A stretch of 64,000 bases of DNA from NCBI GenBank assembly GCA_947085205.1, contig CAMTVO010000014.1, forward strand, positions 17,946-81,945. Reading direction: 5' to 3'. The stretch's first letter is position 1; every line of letters starts with the position of its first letter. A model generated the notes under the pieces. That model was not told the origin of the DNA, did not search any database, and saw only the letters and a list, made by a program, of their open reading frames with translations. The position numbers were made by a program, and so were the translations under genes. Below, piece after piece: positions 17,534 to 57,663 of this stretch. The stretch comes from an uncultured Nitrospiraceae bacterium. GTDB taxonomy: Bacteria > Nitrospirota > Thermodesulfovibrionia > Thermodesulfovibrionales > Dissulfurispiraceae.

Positions 17534-18214
17534 CTACTTTGCCTTTTCCTCAAAAAGCTCTTCTTCCTGTTTGTCCTTCATCTTCTTGACAAGCTCTTCG
17601 TAGGAATCCCGCAGAATGATCTTATTAAATTGTGTCCTGTAATTGCTTACGAGGCTTACGCCTTCTATCACCACATCATATACTTCCCATTTGCCATTCT
17701 TTTTGAGGAGCCTGTAATGTATAGGTATTTCAACATTTCTCTTTGTGATTACCTTGCTTTTTACAACAGAGTATTCGCCCTCTATATCCTCACCCACATA
17801 CAAAATCTTTTCGTCTTCATAGGCCTCAATCTTTTTAATATATGACCTTTCAAGAAGGTCGGCATATAACGGCACAAACTCTTTTCTTTCCTCTGGCGTC
17901 CTTTTTCTCCAATGAAGGGCGAGGGACCTCTTTGCCATTTCCTCAAAATCAAATCTCTCGGAAATAGTCTTGCGGATTGCAGTCCTTCGCTCCTTTGTTT
18001 TTTCCGGCTTCTTCAGTTCCTTGTTTCTTAAGATATCAAGAACCTTATCAACGGTCTGCTTTACCTGATTTGTAGGCTCACCAGCATAGGCATCAGAAGC
18101 AGTGAATAGTGAATAGTGAATAGTGAACAGCAGAAGCATAACGAGTAACGAGTAATGAGTAACAAGTTTTTTGAAATCTGAAATCTGAAATCTGAAATCT
18201 GAAATTTTTCCCAT
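17534..18214 (-). CDS. mlaC: MlaC/Ttg2D-family periplasmic lipid-binding protein
   Basis: Tol-tolerance family pattern (RRTAIRKTISERFDFEEMAKRSLALHWRK...ERKEF). Signal peptide ends AYA|G. SD GAGAGG before ATG 18214. Confidence 0.8.
   Translation of the reverse strand: MGKISDFRFQISDFKKLVTHYSLLVMLLLFTIHYSLFTASDAYAGEPTNQVKQTVDKVLDILRNKELKKPEKTKERRTAIRKTISERFDFEEMAKRSLALHWRKRTPEERKEFVPLYADLLERSYIKKIEAYEDEKILYVGEDIEGEYSVVKSKVITKRNVEIPIHYRLLKKNGKWEVYDVVIEGVSLVSNYRTQFNKIILRDSYEELVKKMKDKQEEELFEEKAK
18100..18205. repeat. Three consecutive heptamer arrays (TAGTGAA x3-4; GTAACGA-type x4; CTGAAAT x5) in the mlaC 5' coding region
   Basis: Arrays at 18100-18130, 18137-18166 and 18171-18205. Confidence 0.9.
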
Positions 18215-18224
18215 AATCGCCTCT

Positions 18225-19634
18225 CTATCTTATCTCTTTCAAATCCAATCCTGTTGCATACAAAAGATTTGCGAATGATATCCTATGATTATATATAGAG
18301 CGTAGATTATCTGCCTTCATCTGTGAGTAAGCTACCGCTGCATCAGCCACATCCTTTGCATCGCCTATCCCGAGGTCGAAGTTAGCCACTGCCGCAACAA
18401 GCCACTTCCTTGCATTTCTGTATGCCTTTTCTGTCTCTATGATATTCTTCCTTGCCTCTTCCAGATCGAGATATGCCTTTCTCACCTGAAACGGTATGGC
18501 ATCGTCGGCGAATTTCTTCTTCTCCAGCAATTTATAATATTCAGCCTGAGCCTCCTTCACCCTTCCCCCTGTTATTCCGAAATCGATAGACCACTTAAGC
18601 CCCATAAATGCAGCGCTGTAGGCATGGTTAAAGTAATCGTAAATATACGGGTTATCCACCTTATCCCTGTTTGTTGCACCTGCTACAGATGCCTTCAGTC
18701 CTACAAATAACTGAGGATAGTAGTTGCTCTTCTCCACACCGATAAGGGCATTCCTCGCATTCAAACCCTCTTTAAGCTGGATAAATTCAGGTCTGAGTTC
18801 CACAGCATTTTTCAAATAGTTATTCAGCTCCTCGGGGATTCTGCTTTCCGGCGTGAGAAAAGTGTCTGCAGTATCGAATTCGGTTCCTCTTGGAAACCCC
18901 ATGCTTGTTACAAGGGCATCTGTTGCAAGGGCAATTCCCTTTTCTGCCTCGTTGATGTTTTTGTCAACCGCTCCTAAAAATGTCCTGAGTTTGAATAGAT
19001 TGAGTTCGTCCGCCCACGGAGAGTCTATTTCTATCTGTTTCTCCGCCTTTTTTATCGATTCGACAAGTTCGTCCTTGACTTCCAGAGCAAGGTTTCGCAT
19101 ATCCTTTGCAAGGAGAAGGCCGTAATAAAGTTCCTTTGTTCTTAAAACTATATCAGATGTCTTCTTATCCACACCTGCCTTTGCCACTTTTATGCCGCTC
19201 GAGGCAGCCTCTCTATAACTGCTTATCTTGCCGAATGTGTATATGGGCTGGATTAATGTGACCTCTGTACTGCCGAATATCCCGTTGACAGTTGTTCCTA
19301 CAGATGTATTAACATTTGGGCTTATCTGCTCCCTCTTTGCCCTTGGAGACGGCCCTGTAATTGCGAGTACCTCTATCTGAGGATAGACTGCCGAGTCTGC
19401 CTGGAGCTTTTTTGACTTATACGCTTCCTCTTCGTATCGTGATTCGCCTATCTCGGGGCTGACCTCGATAGCCTTTTTTATGCACTGCTCGATATTTAAA
19501 ACAATCTTTCCACTATCTTGAGCATATGCAGGAATGGCTAAATTAGTAGACAGTAAGCAGTAGACAGTAGACAGTAAAAAAAGAAAAATTTTTTTTGACT
19601 GCTGACTCCTGACTGCTGACTGCTGACACTTCAT
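18225..19634 (-). CDS. TolC-family outer membrane efflux protein
   Basis: Two OEP repeats, signal peptide ending AYA|Q, strong SD AGGAGG 5 nt before ATG 19634. Confidence 0.8.
   Translation of the reverse strand: MKCQQSAVRSQQSKKIFLFLLSTVYCLLSTNLAIPAYAQDSGKIVLNIEQCIKKAIEVSPEIGESRYEEEAYKSKKLQADSAVYPQIEVLAITGPSPRAKREQISPNVNTSVGTTVNGIFGSTEVTLIQPIYTFGKISSYREAASSGIKVAKAGVDKKTSDIVLRTKELYYGLLLAKDMRNLALEVKDELVESIKKAEKQIEIDSPWADELNLFKLRTFLGAVDKNINEAEKGIALATDALVTSMGFPRGTEFDTADTFLTPESRIPEELNNYLKNAVELRPEFIQLKEGLNARNALIGVEKSNYYPQLFVGLKASVAGATNRDKVDNPYIYDYFNHAYSAAFMGLKWSIDFGITGGRVKEAQAEYYKLLEKKKFADDAIPFQVRKAYLDLEEARKNIIETEKAYRNARKWLVAAVANFDLGIGDAKDVADAAVAYSQMKADNLRSIYNHRISFANLLYATGLDLKEIR
19544..19630. repeat. 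Two heptamer arrays (CAGTAGA/CAGTAAG x5; TGACTGC/TGACTCC x5) in the tolC 5' coding region
   Basis: Arrays at 19544-19578 and 19596-19630. Confidence 0.9.
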
Positions 19635-30839: not shown

Positions 30840-31568
30840 TTAAAACGGCCATACCTTGTCCAAAAATCTCACAAGCCAGCCCTGCGACTGCTTGTCATCC
30901 AAAACACCGTCGCCGACAAAGTATATCTGGGCGTCTGCTATATACTGTGACAGGACTGTATTATTCGGCGATATATCATCAGGCCTCACAATGCCCTTCA
31001 ATACGAGTATCTCTTTTTCATTGTTCACGACTACCTCTTTTCTCGACTCGAGCACCAGATTGGAATTGGGCAGAACCTCCACAACCTTTGCCGTTACAGT
31101 GCCTGTAAGTTTTCCCTCTCTCGTGGTATCGCCTTTTCCTTTAAAGTCAGACTTCCCCTTTCCCTCGACAGACGGAGAAAACACATTTGCCCCTTTGTAA
31201 AATCCGCCTAACATAGGGAGTTTATCTACGCCAAAGTCAGTATTCATCCCAAAAAAATTGTCCAGTCCGTAATCAGCGGATGAATCACGGCTGGCATTGG
31301 TGGTAGCCTTTTTAGAAGCGGTCGATTTTTCATTGATTAATATTGTCACAAGGTCATTTACCCTCTTAGCCCTTCTGTCCTCAAAAAGCGAAGCGCTGTC
31401 CTTCCATAAAGAACCTTCTGATGAGGATGCCTCTTTTTCCTTTGTTTCGACATATCTCGGCGGCATAGGAGCATTTTTTATATCGCGCGCGTCCTTGAGA
31501 CCGGAACAACCAATTAATACAGTGAACAGTGAACAGTGAACAGTGAACAGTAATATAGTGCGAATCAT
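30840..31568 (-). CDS. flgH: Flagellar L-ring lipoprotein FlgH
   Basis: Lipobox LIGC, GSLW, RAKRVNDLVTI, GKG.T..EG.LTG.VTA.V motifs. Confidence 0.95.
   Translation of the reverse strand: MIRTILLFTVHCSLFTVLIGCSGLKDARDIKNAPMPPRYVETKEKEASSSEGSLWKDSASLFEDRRAKRVNDLVTILINEKSTASKKATTNASRDSSADYGLDNFFGMNTDFGVDKLPMLGGFYKGANVFSPSVEGKGKSDFKGKGDTTREGKLTGTVTAKVVEVLPNSNLVLESRKEVVVNNEKEILVLKGIVRPDDISPNNTVLSQYIADAQIYFVGDGVLDDKQSQGWLVRFLDKVWPF
31520..31554. repeat. Heptamer array CAGTGAA x4 perfect (+CAGTAAT) in the flgH signal-peptide codons
   Basis: Read directly. Confidence 0.95.
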
Positions 31569-32320
31569 ATCTTTACCCTCACTGTATCAGGCGATGTAAG
31601 AATTCCGCTCACCTCTTTTTTGGACACATCGCATGAAACCTTTGCCGTACCGCCCATTACGGCGTCATTTTTGAGCGATCCCTGAGTTGTTATAACCACG
31701 TTGCCTCCTTCGACCACAACATTAACCCTCTGTCCCCTTTTAATGCTCAACTGGGTTGTTAGATGATCGCTCCTTAAAATAACCCCTTGTCCTATGTTCG
31801 TCTTAAGCGCTTTTCCTTCCAAATCGTTCATGCTCAACACTGCGCCTGCCGGCAGTCTCGAACTCTTCTGCTTTACGATATAAAAATCGTCAGCGCTCAG
31901 CGTAGTTCCTTTTACAAGAGGCCTTGAGGTTATGAACACATCCACAAGCACATTGTAAGATGCTTCGACAATTATACTTTTCGTCTCAATCTTCCTGTTT
32001 TTAAGACCGACTGAAAAATGAGCCTTATTGCGTCCTGCATATCCGTTCATAACTGCATTGGCAACCGTATACCCATCCGGGCTTTTTAAGACATCCGCCC
32101 CTGAGATTACTCTCAGTCCATTAACTTCGACATCTCCTGAAACAGACTTCTTCAGTTCATTCAATACTGCCTTTTTAACCGCATCCATCAATTCGACTTG
32201 AGCATAGGACTCGGTTATAGTAAGCAGTAAGCAGTAAGCAGTAAGCAGTAATATAGCAACAAGTAACGAATAACGAGTTTTTTGACTTCCGACTCTTGAT
32301 GCTTGACGCTCGACGCTCAT
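31565..32320 (-). CDS. flgA: Flagellar basal-body P-ring formation chaperone FlgA
   Basis: C-terminal SAF/ChapFlgA pattern (IKRGQRVNVV...G..V...G.....G..G..V.V). Signal peptide. SD GAGGAG. Confidence 0.85.
   Translation of the reverse strand: MSVERQASRVGSQKTRYSLLVAILLLTAYCLLLTITESYAQVELMDAVKKAVLNELKKSVSGDVEVNGLRVISGADVLKSPDGYTVANAVMNGYAGRNKAHFSVGLKNRKIETKSIIVEASYNVLVDVFITSRPLVKGTTLSADDFYIVKQKSSRLPAGAVLSMNDLEGKALKTNIGQGVILRSDHLTTQLSIKRGQRVNVVVEGGNVVITTQGSLKNDAVMGGTAKVSCDVSKKEVSGILTSPDTVRVKI
32218..32318. repeat. Three arrays (CAGTAAG x3 perfect + 2 degenerate; GTAACGA x2; GACGCTC-type x5) in the flgA 5' coding region
   Basis: Arrays at 32218-32252, 32263-32277 and 32284-32318. Confidence 0.9.
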
Positions 32321-56302: not shown

Positions 56303-56572
56303 TCACCTCACATACATCGGTATGTTCTCGAATATGCTCCTCGTAAATCCGACCAGCACCTTAACCATCCAGGGCAGCGCCACCAGCAGCGTCACAAAAA
56401 CTGCTATTATCTTAGGCACAAAGGTCATAGTCATCTCCTGAAGCTGTGTGATTGCCTGAAAAATGCTTATCACCATTCCGACAATAAGGCTGACAAGCAA
56501 TACAGGGCCTCCGACCAGCAGGATAGTCTCGAAGGTCTGCCTTGATACCTGATTTAATAATTCCATTGTCAT
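56303..56572 (-). CDS. fliQ: Flagellar export gate protein FliQ
   Basis: The 89-aa product from ATG 56572 (MTMELLNQV...) matches FliQ length and pattern (SLIVGMVISIFQA.TQLQE.T..FVPK). ATGA overlap with the fliP stop. Confidence 0.9.
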   Translation of the reverse strand: MTMELLNQVSRQTFETILLVGGPVLLVSLIVGMVISIFQAITQLQEMTMTFVPKIIAVFVTLLVALPWMVKVLVGFTRSIFENIPMYVR

Positions 56573-57663
56573 CTGACGAACCCTCCGATAAGCGAACCTA
56601 TCAATAAATCCCATCCGTCCACAAGTACGAACAGGAGCAATTTAAAGGGCATGGAAATCATAATGGGCGGAAGCATCATCATACCCATCGAAAGAAGGAT
56701 ACTCGCTACAATCATATCGATTACAAGAAATGGAAGAAAAATAAGAAAGCCTATTTCGAATGCCCTTTTCAGTTCTCCTATGGAGAATGCCGGAATAACA
56801 ACCCTCATTGGAAGATCCATCGGTGTTGCAGGCCTCTCAAGCTTCGACATCCTTAAAAAAAGCGCAAGGTCTTTTTCCCTCGTCTGCTTCAGCATGAACT
56901 CCTTCAAGGGGACTCCGGCCCTGTTAAGCGCCTCCTCAGCATTTATCTGCTTTTTTGTATAAGGCTGGTAGGCATCGGTGTAGATTCTGTCTACAACCGG
57001 AGACATGATAAAAAGGGTAATAAAAAGCGACAGGCCTATTATTACCTGTGTGGGAGGAACCTGCGGTGTTCCGAGCGCCTGCCTAAGAAACGAGAGCACA
57101 ACCACTATCCTTGTAAAACATGTAGTCATAACAAGAATTGCAGGCAGTATGGAAATCAGCGTAAGAAACAAAAGGAGTTCGAGCGGAGTCGTTAATCCCA
57201 AAAAGCTGCCGCCCGCAGGCGGAGGCGGAGCAGGAGCGGCAAAAGAGAAAGAAGGCAATAGGCAATAGGCGATAGGCAGAAAAGTAACGAGTAACGAGTA
57301 CCGGGTAACGAGTTTTTTCAAATTTTGAATCTTTGATTTAAAATCTTTTATTCCTGACTCCTGACTCCTGACTCCTAACTCTTGCTTTAAAGCTTCTTCC
57401 ACGTCCGATGGGTTAGGCTTGCTGAGAAGGGATATGCTTTCATCCGCAACGCCCAATACAAGATATTCTTTTAAGACCTTGACTATTGCAACTCCCTTTT
57501 TAGGACCAAAAGGCTGGTATTGAATAATTTCTATCATTCCCTTTTGGGGTAATATCCTCTGTTTCAAAAATCTCAGAAGCAGATACAGACCCCCTAAAAC
57601 TATCAAAAGTGCAAGTGTAACTTTTATTAATTCAATGCCCAAGTTTTCCTCCCAATACTCCAT
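56569..57663 (-). CDS. fliP: FliO-like domain fused in frame to flagellar export gate protein FliP
   Basis: aa 1-~95: single TM helix plus a FliO-like segment (GMIEIIQYQPFGPKKGVAIVKVLKEYLVLGV). aa ~115-364: FliP (signal-like LVTFLPIAYCLLPSFSFA, then TCFTRIVVVLSFLRQALG, PPTQV, MLPP). No stop codon between the two parts. Confidence 0.85.
   Translation of the reverse strand: MEYWEENLGIELIKVTLALLIVLGGLYLLLRFLKQRILPQKGMIEIIQYQPFGPKKGVAIVKVLKEYLVLGVADESISLLSKPNPSDVEEALKQELGVRSQESGIKDFKSKIQNLKKLVTRYSLLVTFLPIAYCLLPSFSFAAPAPPPPAGGSFLGLTTPLELLLFLTLISILPAILVMTTCFTRIVVVLSFLRQALGTPQVPPTQVIIGLSLFITLFIMSPVVDRIYTDAYQPYTKKQINAEEALNRAGVPLKEFMLKQTREKDLALFLRMSKLERPATPMDLPMRVVIPAFSIGELKRAFEIGFLIFLPFLVIDMIVASILLSMGMMMLPPIMISMPFKLLLFVLVDGWDLLIGSLIGGFVR
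57253..57381. repeat. Three arrays (AGGCAAT-type x4; GTAACGA-type x4; CTGACTC x3 + CTAACTC) forming the FliO-FliP junction
   Basis: Arrays at 57253-57280, 57284-57312 and 57354-57381. Confidence 0.9.

Follow-up and report, generated by a model that had tools for sequence, protein, structure and literature searches.

Heptamer arrays in the predicted signal peptides of mlaC, fliP and flgA of a Nitrospiraceae bacterium and their probable descent from a dispersed hairpin repeat

Three leaders built from seven-base arrays

The window considered here, a stretch of 64,000 nucleotides on contig C14 of the 1.885-Mb draft genome (65 contigs, 43% GC; G000 below) of an uncultured Nitrospiraceae bacterium, is rich in tandem repeats with a unit of seven bases: 37 of its 79 Tandem Repeats Finder (TRF) rows have period 7, and the whole genome holds 547 such rows. 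Our subject is a module of this kind at the start of three exported proteins, encoded on the minus strand by mlaC (17534-18214), flgA (31565-32320) and a single fliO-fliP open reading frame (ORF; 56569-57663), whose Pfam domains are MlaC, FlgA and FliO plus FliP. The three genes lie within 40 kb, and according to Pfam the mature MlaC, FlgA and FliP domains are periplasmic or membrane proteins. The original prediction, made from the letters of the window, had placed a GTAACGA-type array next to a hydrophobic array in each gene; all three sites are present, the flanking arrays are real by TRF, and the common segment lies inside the translated region in every case. Read on the plus strand, each site is a GTAACGA-type array with T6 after it. 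The leaders, on the coding strand, all run from a hydrophilic array through A6, 2.5-4 TCGTTAC-type units and a short spacer to a hydrophobic array and a non-repeat c-region, so that the idea of leaders made from a small set of nucleotide modules in fixed order (hydrophilic, A-run, slot-2, hydrophobic, c-region) holds, with the correction that the A6 run belongs to the shared module together with the array. Below, G002 is Nitrospiraceae bacterium UBA665, other G labels are related genera and L labels are individual loci or contigs; each genus is represented by one genome, mostly metagenome-assembled genomes (MAGs), G008 being closed.

The predicted signal peptide of mlaC (18083..18214, minus strand) comprises 44 codons, MGKISDFRFQISDFKKLVTHYSLLVMLLLFTIHYSLFTASDAYA↓GEPT (the arrow marks the cleavage site), as judged from the ORF and the Pfam domain. 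A Shine-Dalgarno (SD) sequence, GAGAGG, stands 6 nt 5' of the ATG, and the AYA↓GEPT cleavage-type site is kept in about 20 orthologues. The n-region is encoded by a CTGAAAT-type array (18172..18205, minus strand; (ATTTCAG)x4.9 on the coding strand, 100% matches in TRF) read as ISDFRFQISDF. The shared module follows (18138..18172, minus strand), with A6 at 18167-18172 and the units TTGTTAC TCATTAC TCGTTAC TCGTTAT; the plus strand at 18138-18166 is ATAACGAGTAACGAGTAATGAGTAACAAG, and the minus-strand codons AAA AAA CTT GTT ACT CAT TAC TCG TTA CTC GTT give KKLVTHYSLLV. The hydrophobic array, (TTCACTA)x3.9 at 18101..18127 on the minus strand (100% matches in TRF), encodes LFTIHYSLFT.

Within the fliO-fliP frame, the predicted fliP signal peptide occupies 57238..57321 on the minus strand (MKKLVTRYSLLVTFLPIAYCLLPSFSFA↓AP). 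Its shared module (57283..57318, minus strand; A6 at 57313-57318, then TCGTTAC CCGGTAC TCGTTAC TCGTTAC) encodes KKLVTRYSLLVT, the minus-strand codons of the site at 57283-57312 being AAA AAA CTC GTT ACC CGG TAC TCG TTA CTC GTT, or KKLVTRYSLLV. The hydrophobic array found by TRF, (CCTATTG)x3.7 at 57253..57278 (minus strand), encodes LPIAYCLLP and is kept in G002, G018 and L166. A further TRF array of TCCTGAC type (57352..57381, minus strand; (GGAGTCA)x4.3 on the coding strand, GVRSQESG) is separated from the A-run by a degenerate GATTTCA-like stretch (KDFKSKIQNL). The FliO and FliP parts are fused, with an in-frame TTG at 57321-57319 just ahead of the FliP signal peptide; in at least 10 related genera a fused frame covers almost all of the query, and in G006, G009 and G011 the ORFs are separate. 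Predicted cleavage by signal peptidase at SFSFA↓AP would separate FliO from FliP.

The predicted flgA signal peptide (32201..32320, minus strand; 40 codons, MSVERQASRVGSQKTRYSLLVAILLLTAYCLLLTITESYA↓QVE) is preceded by a strong SD, GGAGG, 5' of the ATG. Its n-region array is of GACGCTT type (32291..32317, minus strand; (GAGCGTC)x3.9 on the coding strand, degenerate at 80% matches in TRF) and encodes SVERQASRV; the GAGCGTC unit recurs in G002, in both the fliP linker and the SpoIID-like leader, and in the fliP linker of G018. The shared module (32258..32283, minus strand) is made of A6 (32278-32283) and TCGTTAT TCGTTAC TTGTT, encoding (Q)KTRYSLLV from the minus-strand codons CAA AAA ACT CGT TAT TCG TTA CTT GTT at 32258-32277, and is followed by the hydrophobic array (CTGCTTA)x4.7 (32219..32251, minus strand; 100% matches in TRF; LLLTAYCLLLT), whose unit is the commonest leader unit in G000. 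The n-region arrays that had been proposed for all three genes are found in mlaC and, degenerate, in flgA; in fliP, the CTGACTC array is part of the FliO-FliP linker, 40 nt upstream.

The agreement of the three peptides has an arithmetic basis. Read over three frames, TCGTTAC yields TCG TTA CTC GTT ACT CGT TAC, the cyclic peptide SLLVTRY, and because 7 equals 1 modulo 3 an array of this unit gives the same residues in every frame, while the A-rich run is read as Lys-Lys. The flgA junction is one base out of register with those of mlaC and fliP and its array one unit shorter, and TRYSLLV results all the same; the predicted likeness of flgA thus extends to TRYSLLV, with about 2.5 units and an A6 junction in another frame. 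Near-identity of the peptides therefore follows from the common nucleotide unit and is no extra evidence of homology. Programmed -1 frameshifting on A AAA AAC was considered and rejected, as the zero frame in mlaC and flgA does not fit X XXY YYZ.

At the nucleotide level the likeness among the three sites exceeds chance. Within the genome, the junctions of mlaC and fliP are each other's best match (39 nt, 87%, E about 1e-6), and the flgA junction is a borderline third (28 nt, 86%, E 0.03). A TCGTTAC double unit (at most one mismatch) occurs seven times in G000 and never in the reversed control, four of the seven lying inside the three leaders. The unit is scarce, with 3 TRF arrays compared with 17-23 for the commonest units, and an A6+TCGTTAC junction within arrays is found in G000 at these three sites only, all on C14; the sole other exact AAAAAACTCGTTAC is a single unit in an ordinary gene on contig C43, a chance match. 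Broader pattern searches were less informative: counts of the short junction AAAAAACTYRTTAC (one mismatch) in 31 genomes were not above the reversed control except in G002, and a scan of GTDB genomes for AATTTGAARAAAYTYGTTAC returned mostly chance matches in AT-rich organisms plus two known UBA665 sites.

The leaders have the features of cleaved Sec-type (signal peptidase I) signals, and we infer this function because each of them shows n-, h- and c-features and has a c-region that can be aligned with that of array-free orthologues. Positive residues mark the n-regions (K3, R8, K15 and K16 in MlaC; R5, R9, K14 and R16 in FlgA; KK..R in FliP), and an h-region with a small-x-small motif is found in each (LLVMLLLFTIHYSLFTA-SDAYA↓G, LLVAILLLTAYCLLLTI-TESYA↓Q and LLVTFLPIAYCLLP-SFSFA↓A). 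The h-regions, at about 23 residues, are unusually long, and the leaders measure 40-44 residues compared with 23-27 in the array-free orthologues. MlaC residues 1-46, used as a query for homologous proteins, matched only themselves, and a phmmer search of 1.84 billion representatives with the leader gave five weak matches, each of them a spurious ORF that runs through ATTTCAG arrays (FRFQISD repeats). Literature searches turned up no account of signal peptides encoded by heptamers.

The hairpin repeat of related genera

The GTAACGA/TCGTTAC family, nearly extinct in G000, is abundant in sister genera, with copies on both strands. Double units of TCGTTAC (at most one mismatch) number 144 in G002, 77 in G005, 53 in G030 and 21 in G023, with control counts of 8, 2, 0 and 1, respectively, compared with 7 and 0 in G000. 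In G002 and G005 the element consists of (GTAACGA)n, an A-rich loop (TAAAAGACAAAGAGAAAAAC or GTTGAAAGATAAAAAAGAC) and AC-(TCGTTAC)n, the 5' arm lying within 130 nt, and its copies fold much better than shuffled sequences (z = -4.4 and -2.7). Many of these copies sit in frame within housekeeping proteins, and members of the family also occur between genes. A dedicated signal-peptide cassette is not supported; the module would be one half of a general dispersed hairpin repeat. The most telling copy is found in flgA of G002, where a whole hairpin stands at the 5' end of the gene with both arms translated (SNESIVTSNES ... NSLLVTRYSLLF; -49.6 kcal/mol, z = -10).

A scan of metagenomes for A6+(TCGTTAC)2 found 12 loci, at five of which a GTAACGA-type arm lies just 5' of the A-run; the A-run is therefore the loop of a hairpin. 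The loop/3'-arm junctions of G002 and metagenome hairpins are GAGAAAAAC/TCGTTAC, AAGAAAAAA/CTCGTTAC and AGATAAAAA/CTCGTTAC, that of the three G000 leaders is CAAAAAAC/TCGTTAC, and the phase (...AAAAAAC/TCGTTAC) is identical. The G000 leaders retain only the half comprising loop and 3' arm. The 12 loci also include one further fliO-fliP gene and two overlapping contigs with a solute-binding lipoprotein leader, KKLVTRYSLLTTIFLLLLLTLTAC. On these contigs (L169 and L171; Ga0209724_1038479 and Ga0209511_1001397) the lipoprotein begins ...VKKLVTRYSLLTTIFLLLLLTLTAC, from A6+(TCGTTAC)2.5, and CCCCT/AGGGG motifs abound upstream of it, in sequence that may come from another lineage; the TCGTTAC unit may thus be used for export signals outside the bacterial family under study.

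Complementarity between the arrays of the three leaders is at background (3-5 of 7 positions); among other G000 leaders, 8 of 18 adjacent array pairs reach 5-6 of 7, compared with 14% of random pairs. Translated pairs with other arms were also observed. The OEP/TolC-like gene upstream of mlaC (18225-19634, minus strand) has a leader, MKCQQSAVRSQQSKKIFLFLLSTVYCLLST, that is a translated near-complementary AGCAGTC/ACTGTCT pair around an A8 T5 loop, and its orthologues in G002 and G008 have an A-run and TCGTTAC-type arrays instead. In G006 the leaders of fliP (L031) and flgA (L054) are translated hairpins with GCAAAGC/GCTTTGC-type arms (SIEQSAKRKAQ + LCPLPYALCAF), and G006 flgA also contains an internal TGA.

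Replacement, exchange and age of the leader arrays

Across the family, single arrays are replaced while their surroundings remain. In fliP of G018, (ACGCTTT)5 stands where G000, G002 and L166 have (TCGTTAC)4, between the retained flanks TTGAAAAAA and GCCTATTGCC..TCTTTTGCCGCT, and fliP of G008 has a complementary CAGAAGA/CTTCTGT pair in the same place. The SpoIID-like leader of G002 reads A6-(TCGTTAC)4-(ACTATTC)4; its G000 counterpart shares the A-run and the ACTATTC array and differs in the array of slot 2. Two G008 leaders have TCGTTAC-type arrays where the G000 orthologues have ACTGCTT. Leaders of unrelated genes can be colinear as well: that of G000 mlaC matches the CbiM leaders of G013 and G015 ((ATTTCAR)5 ... 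(TTCACTA)4 + ASDAYA), the h- and c-regions agree at 47 of 50 nt (G013), and the sole difference is a 35-nt block, A6+(TCGTTAC)4, absent from both CbiM genes. A non-repeat spacer, ATTCARAATTTGAARAAA (IQNLKK), recurs in fliP of G000, G002 and L166, in SpoIID of G002 and in mlaC of G013.

These shared pieces bear on the most serious alternative, namely that the unit arose separately in each gene by slippage from ACTNNTY units (TACTCGT vs TACTGCT), together with selection for a Lys-Lys and mildly hydrophobic start. Such convergence deserves some weight, although we consider it doubtful. The hydrophobic leader units of G000 are all one or two substitutions apart, A-runs ahead of hydrophobic arrays are common (about 9 of 31), an unrelated metagenomic solute-binding lipoprotein also begins KKLVTRYSLL, and a common unit by itself makes the peptides identical. 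Separate origins do not account for a junction phase equal to that of hairpin copies in other genomes, for a non-repeat spacer common to fliP, SpoIID and mlaC across genomes, or for the ASDAYA c-region common to the mlaC and CbiM leaders.

The order of the arrays was also examined. As had been predicted, it is not random: a hydrophilic array comes first in all ten G000 leaders with arrays of mixed hydropathy, and unit hydropathy rises monotonically in the three leaders (-0.3/+0.6/+0.7, -1.3/+0.6/+1.9 and -1.2/+0.6/+2.0), SLLVTRY (+0.6) being central. Hydrophobic ACTNNTY units are found in leaders. Hydrophilic units occur outside leaders too: at least 15 other G000 proteins contain GGAGTCA (SGVRSQE) as an in-frame insert, and an ATTTCAG array (FQISDFNFQI) lies in frame within a DXS-like protein on contig C41. 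The GGAGTCA hosts include, by sequence, MurG-like, MutS-like, GatB-like and PurL-like proteins (C62:35151, C6:23642, C19:41746, C33, C42 and others). We attribute the order to selection that tolerates each array only where its hydropathy fits, reinforced by the geometry of translated hairpins; a fixed order does not by itself require a cassette mechanism.

Copying of whole leader parts between genes, non-repeat sequence included, is documented in UBA665. Its adjacent OEP and mlaC genes have about 105 nt in common at 93% identity, from the ribosome-binding site through the ATG, the n-array and the A-run to the first TCGTTAC, with one 21-nt indel and divergence after the cassette; its fliP and SpoIID-like genes have about 70 nt in common (GCGTCAAAGAAAAAATTCAGAATTTGAARAAAYTCGTTAC...) and diverge at the hydrophobic array. 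It could then be asked whether recombination or gene conversion recently copied one leader cassette among mlaC, fliP and flgA of G000 too, as the restriction of the array junction to three sites on C14, the reciprocal best match of mlaC and fliP and the UBA665 cases would allow. We regard this as improbable, given that each copy is also found in orthologues of other genera. The fliP leader is shared with G002 and L166 (KIQNLKK(L/F)VTRYSL(L/F)VTFLP(I/V)(A/T)YCL) with four units and no gaps. In flgA the module appears as ACTCATTATTCGTTACTTGT in G008 (19/20 nt), (ACTCGTT)x4.5 in G002 and TGTTACT units in G005. In mlaC it is degenerate with the A6 retained (KKLIICYPLL in G008, KKLIARASFL in G013, KKKLVTCHL in G002). 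Moreover, each gene has private unit variants (TTGTTAC TCATTAC in mlaC, CCGGTAC in fliP, TCGTTAT..TTGTT in flgA), likeness ends at the array edges with flgA in another register, substitutions are mainly synonymous and without indels, and an all-against-all comparison of 1709 G000 gene starts detected no recent leader copying involving the three genes. The genes are syntenic neighbours in the closed G008 genome too, so their proximity is ancestral and no evidence of local spread. The three copies thus appear to be older than the genus splits and stable since. Of the recombination or templated spread originally proposed, what stands are the swaps at array edges (G018 fliP), the 35-nt mlaC/CbiM insert and the UBA665 cassettes; no recent event was found among the three G000 genes.

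Substitutions in fliP suggest what has been maintained. For the whole leader pS is 0.34-0.57 and pN 0.07-0.15, and for the module alone 0.41-0.55 and 0-0.08; synonymous and non-synonymous changes in the module number 4 and 0 between G000 and L166, and 5.0 and 2.0 between G000 and G002. The peptide is kept while the periodicity of the DNA decays differently in each lineage, which indicates that the module is translated and argues against homogenisation at the DNA level. The same observation makes it unlikely, marginally more so than recent copying, that an element acting as nucleic acid (an mRNA 5' structure, a protein-binding array, or an antisense stop or terminator) was selected with translation incidental, since synonymous changes predominate overwhelmingly in fliP and disrupt the DNA periodicity. 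In favour of such an element, the flgA array of G008 (L044) is 95% identical to the window at 32258-32277 over 20 nt (ACTCRTTATTCGTTACTTGT), flgA being otherwise about 69% identical, even though the two are read in different frames (LIIRYLS and TRYSLLV). The RNA of the mlaC leader has less structure than any of its 200 shuffles, which could favour initiation, and the reverse complement GTAACGA has TAA in all three frames ahead of T6. However, an RNA hairpin or terminator was rejected for the three leaders, as folding is no better than in shuffles; without a hairpin there is no terminator, and the T-run is the loop of the parent element and not a tail. The frame difference in flgA implies either compensated frame shifts within the leader or conservation at the DNA level.

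Copy numbers are likewise steady. A strain with 94.7%-identical mlaC has the same array copy numbers, with differences at 7 of 132 positions in the leader and 29 of 549 elsewhere and no indel, the leader is identical in a strain with 98.7%-identical fliO-fliP, and no copy-number polymorphism was seen between these close strains or in fliP of three lineages. Although the unit length is not divisible by three and the arrays lie inside coding leaders, it is very improbable that they are phase-variable contingency loci in which 7-base slippage switches export proteins on and off in the manner of CTCTT in Neisseria opa, as the tracts, at 2.5-5 units, are short and contain imperfections, copy numbers do not vary among strains or, for fliP, across genera, fliP and flgA are core flagellar genes, and adjacent arrays would buffer frame shifts rather than exploit them.

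A probable hairpin origin and comparison with known repeats

The explanation that we favour, with a probability of roughly 0.68, combines a hairpin-derived module, its vertical inheritance under purifying selection, and family-wide mosaics of slots. The module would be the A-rich loop and 3' arm of a dispersed (GTAACGA)n - A-rich loop - (TCGTTAC)n hairpin, and the three G000 copies probably descend from full hairpins. A hairpin that is read through would give a purine-rich hydrophilic arm, a Lys-rich loop and a pyrimidine-rich hydrophobic arm, which is the layout of a signal peptide. The Lys-Lys loop and the LVTRYSLLV arm would then form the junction of the positive n-region with the hydrophobic core of a Sec-type signal, a second and more hydrophobic array would complete the core, and the non-repeat c-region (AYA↓G, SYA↓Q, SFA↓A) would provide the cleavage site. 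The modules of mlaC, fliP and flgA were presumably gained before the genera diverged and then passed on by vertical descent, with purifying selection acting on the peptide and the periodicity of the DNA decaying through synonymous change. Across the family, leaders would be mosaics in which the slots are fixed and the arrays that fill them are exchanged for others or copied from gene to gene, probably by array-mediated recombination or template switching and not by mutation and slippage in situ.

Several points weigh against this explanation. The three G000 leaders are not hairpins themselves (z = +2.4, +1.25 and +0.6 for RNA folding against shuffles), and no GTAACGA 5' arm is left beside them, so that their hairpin origin leans on relatives, chiefly on flgA of G002. 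The synonymous and non-synonymous counts rest on about 35 codons. The identity of the G008 and G000 flgA arrays across frames hints at conservation at the DNA level at that site, and the OEP leader of UBA665 lies at the contig end of a MAG. Finally, a tree from MlaC, FliP and FlgA is star-like with no supported fork and does not fix the polarity of gain and loss; as this three-protein species tree lacks resolution, an ancestral module replaced in G008 and G018 is not rigorously separable from lateral acquisition.

A more far-reaching proposal, which we hold only tentatively, is that signal peptides are put together from heptamer arrays as portable blocks independent of frame, that the arrays are at the same time handles for recombination, that leaders swap slots by array-mediated templated copying, and that the arrays are homogenised genome by genome. 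The dominant units in orthologous leaders are ACTGCTT in G000, TCGTTAC in UBA665, G005 and G008, and ACGCTTT in G018. If true, this would be a bacterial analogue of exon shuffling that acts on targeting signals and is driven by a putative repeat-propagating activity. Point mutation under weak constraint is the usual picture of how signal peptides evolve. In the present leaders the n- and h-regions are translated from copies of a repeat found throughout the genome, and because its 7-base period gives the same product in every frame the leader should tolerate paired frame shifts. This suggests a concrete route by which repeat DNA may remodel, and possibly create, protein targeting. Coding copies might also serve as a dating tool for repeat families, as fossils that outlast the turned-over intergenic ones.

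Among known systems, the opa genes of Neisseria have CTCTT coding repeats in the leader peptide of phase-variable outer-membrane proteins. The likeness lies in a tandem unit, not a multiple of three, inside the region coding for a signal peptide and translated as hydrophobic residues. In contrast to opa, the tracts described here are short and stable, belong to housekeeping export genes, would originate from a dispersed hairpin and occur several to a leader, and copy numbers in close strains and in fliP across lineages give no sign of on/off switching in the G000 leaders. Rickettsia palindromic elements are dispersed palindromes resembling miniature inverted-repeat transposable elements, with a fixed consensus of 100-150 bp, that are read in frame as an extra peptide. 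They resemble the present family in being a dispersed palindromic repeat tolerated in ORFs, as the in-frame copies in housekeeping proteins of G002 and G005 illustrate. The present arms, however, are heptamer arrays with a variable unit, the loops differ among copies, inspection of a few copies showed neither terminal inverted repeats nor target duplications, and what is found in the G000 leaders is half an element with a plausible role as a targeting signal.

Closer in structure are the heptameric simple sequence repeat (SSR) families, among them the TAACTGA repeats of marine Beggiatoaceae (PMC4679880) and the GGGAATC and GGGGA(C/T)T arrays and inverted pairs of Xanthomonas and Nostoc (PMC4692102). 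With these, and with cyanobacterial STRR, the present repeats have in common the genome-wide occurrence of arrays with 2-6 tandem 7-nt units, in many cases close to start codons, frequent convergent pairs able to form stem-loops, and a patchy distribution across lineages. The Beggiatoaceae, Xanthomonas and Nostoc families are reported to be mostly intergenic and under-represented in coding regions (PMC4679880, PMC4692102), whereas the arrays described here are translated and form the n- and h-regions of predicted signal peptides. What is new in the present analysis is the identification of the A-run with a hairpin loop, the dating and selection analysis of the copies, and the evidence for slot swaps and cassettes. 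For annotation it matters that such leaders are long, repetitive and prone to wrong starts or masking.

Similar gene starts were also observed elsewhere in G000. Two genes on contig C20, at 28607 and 34840 (plus strand) and 6 kb apart, have a non-repeat signal peptide in common (108 nt, 83%; MF(T/R)FKSLLRSLA...VIAILSIS..S.(F/S)AAEK), and their mature parts look unrelated from the first residues. Several gene starts on contigs C34 and C9 are 76-91% identical and colinear, which suggests that a large element, perhaps an integrative or conjugative one, is present in two diverged copies.

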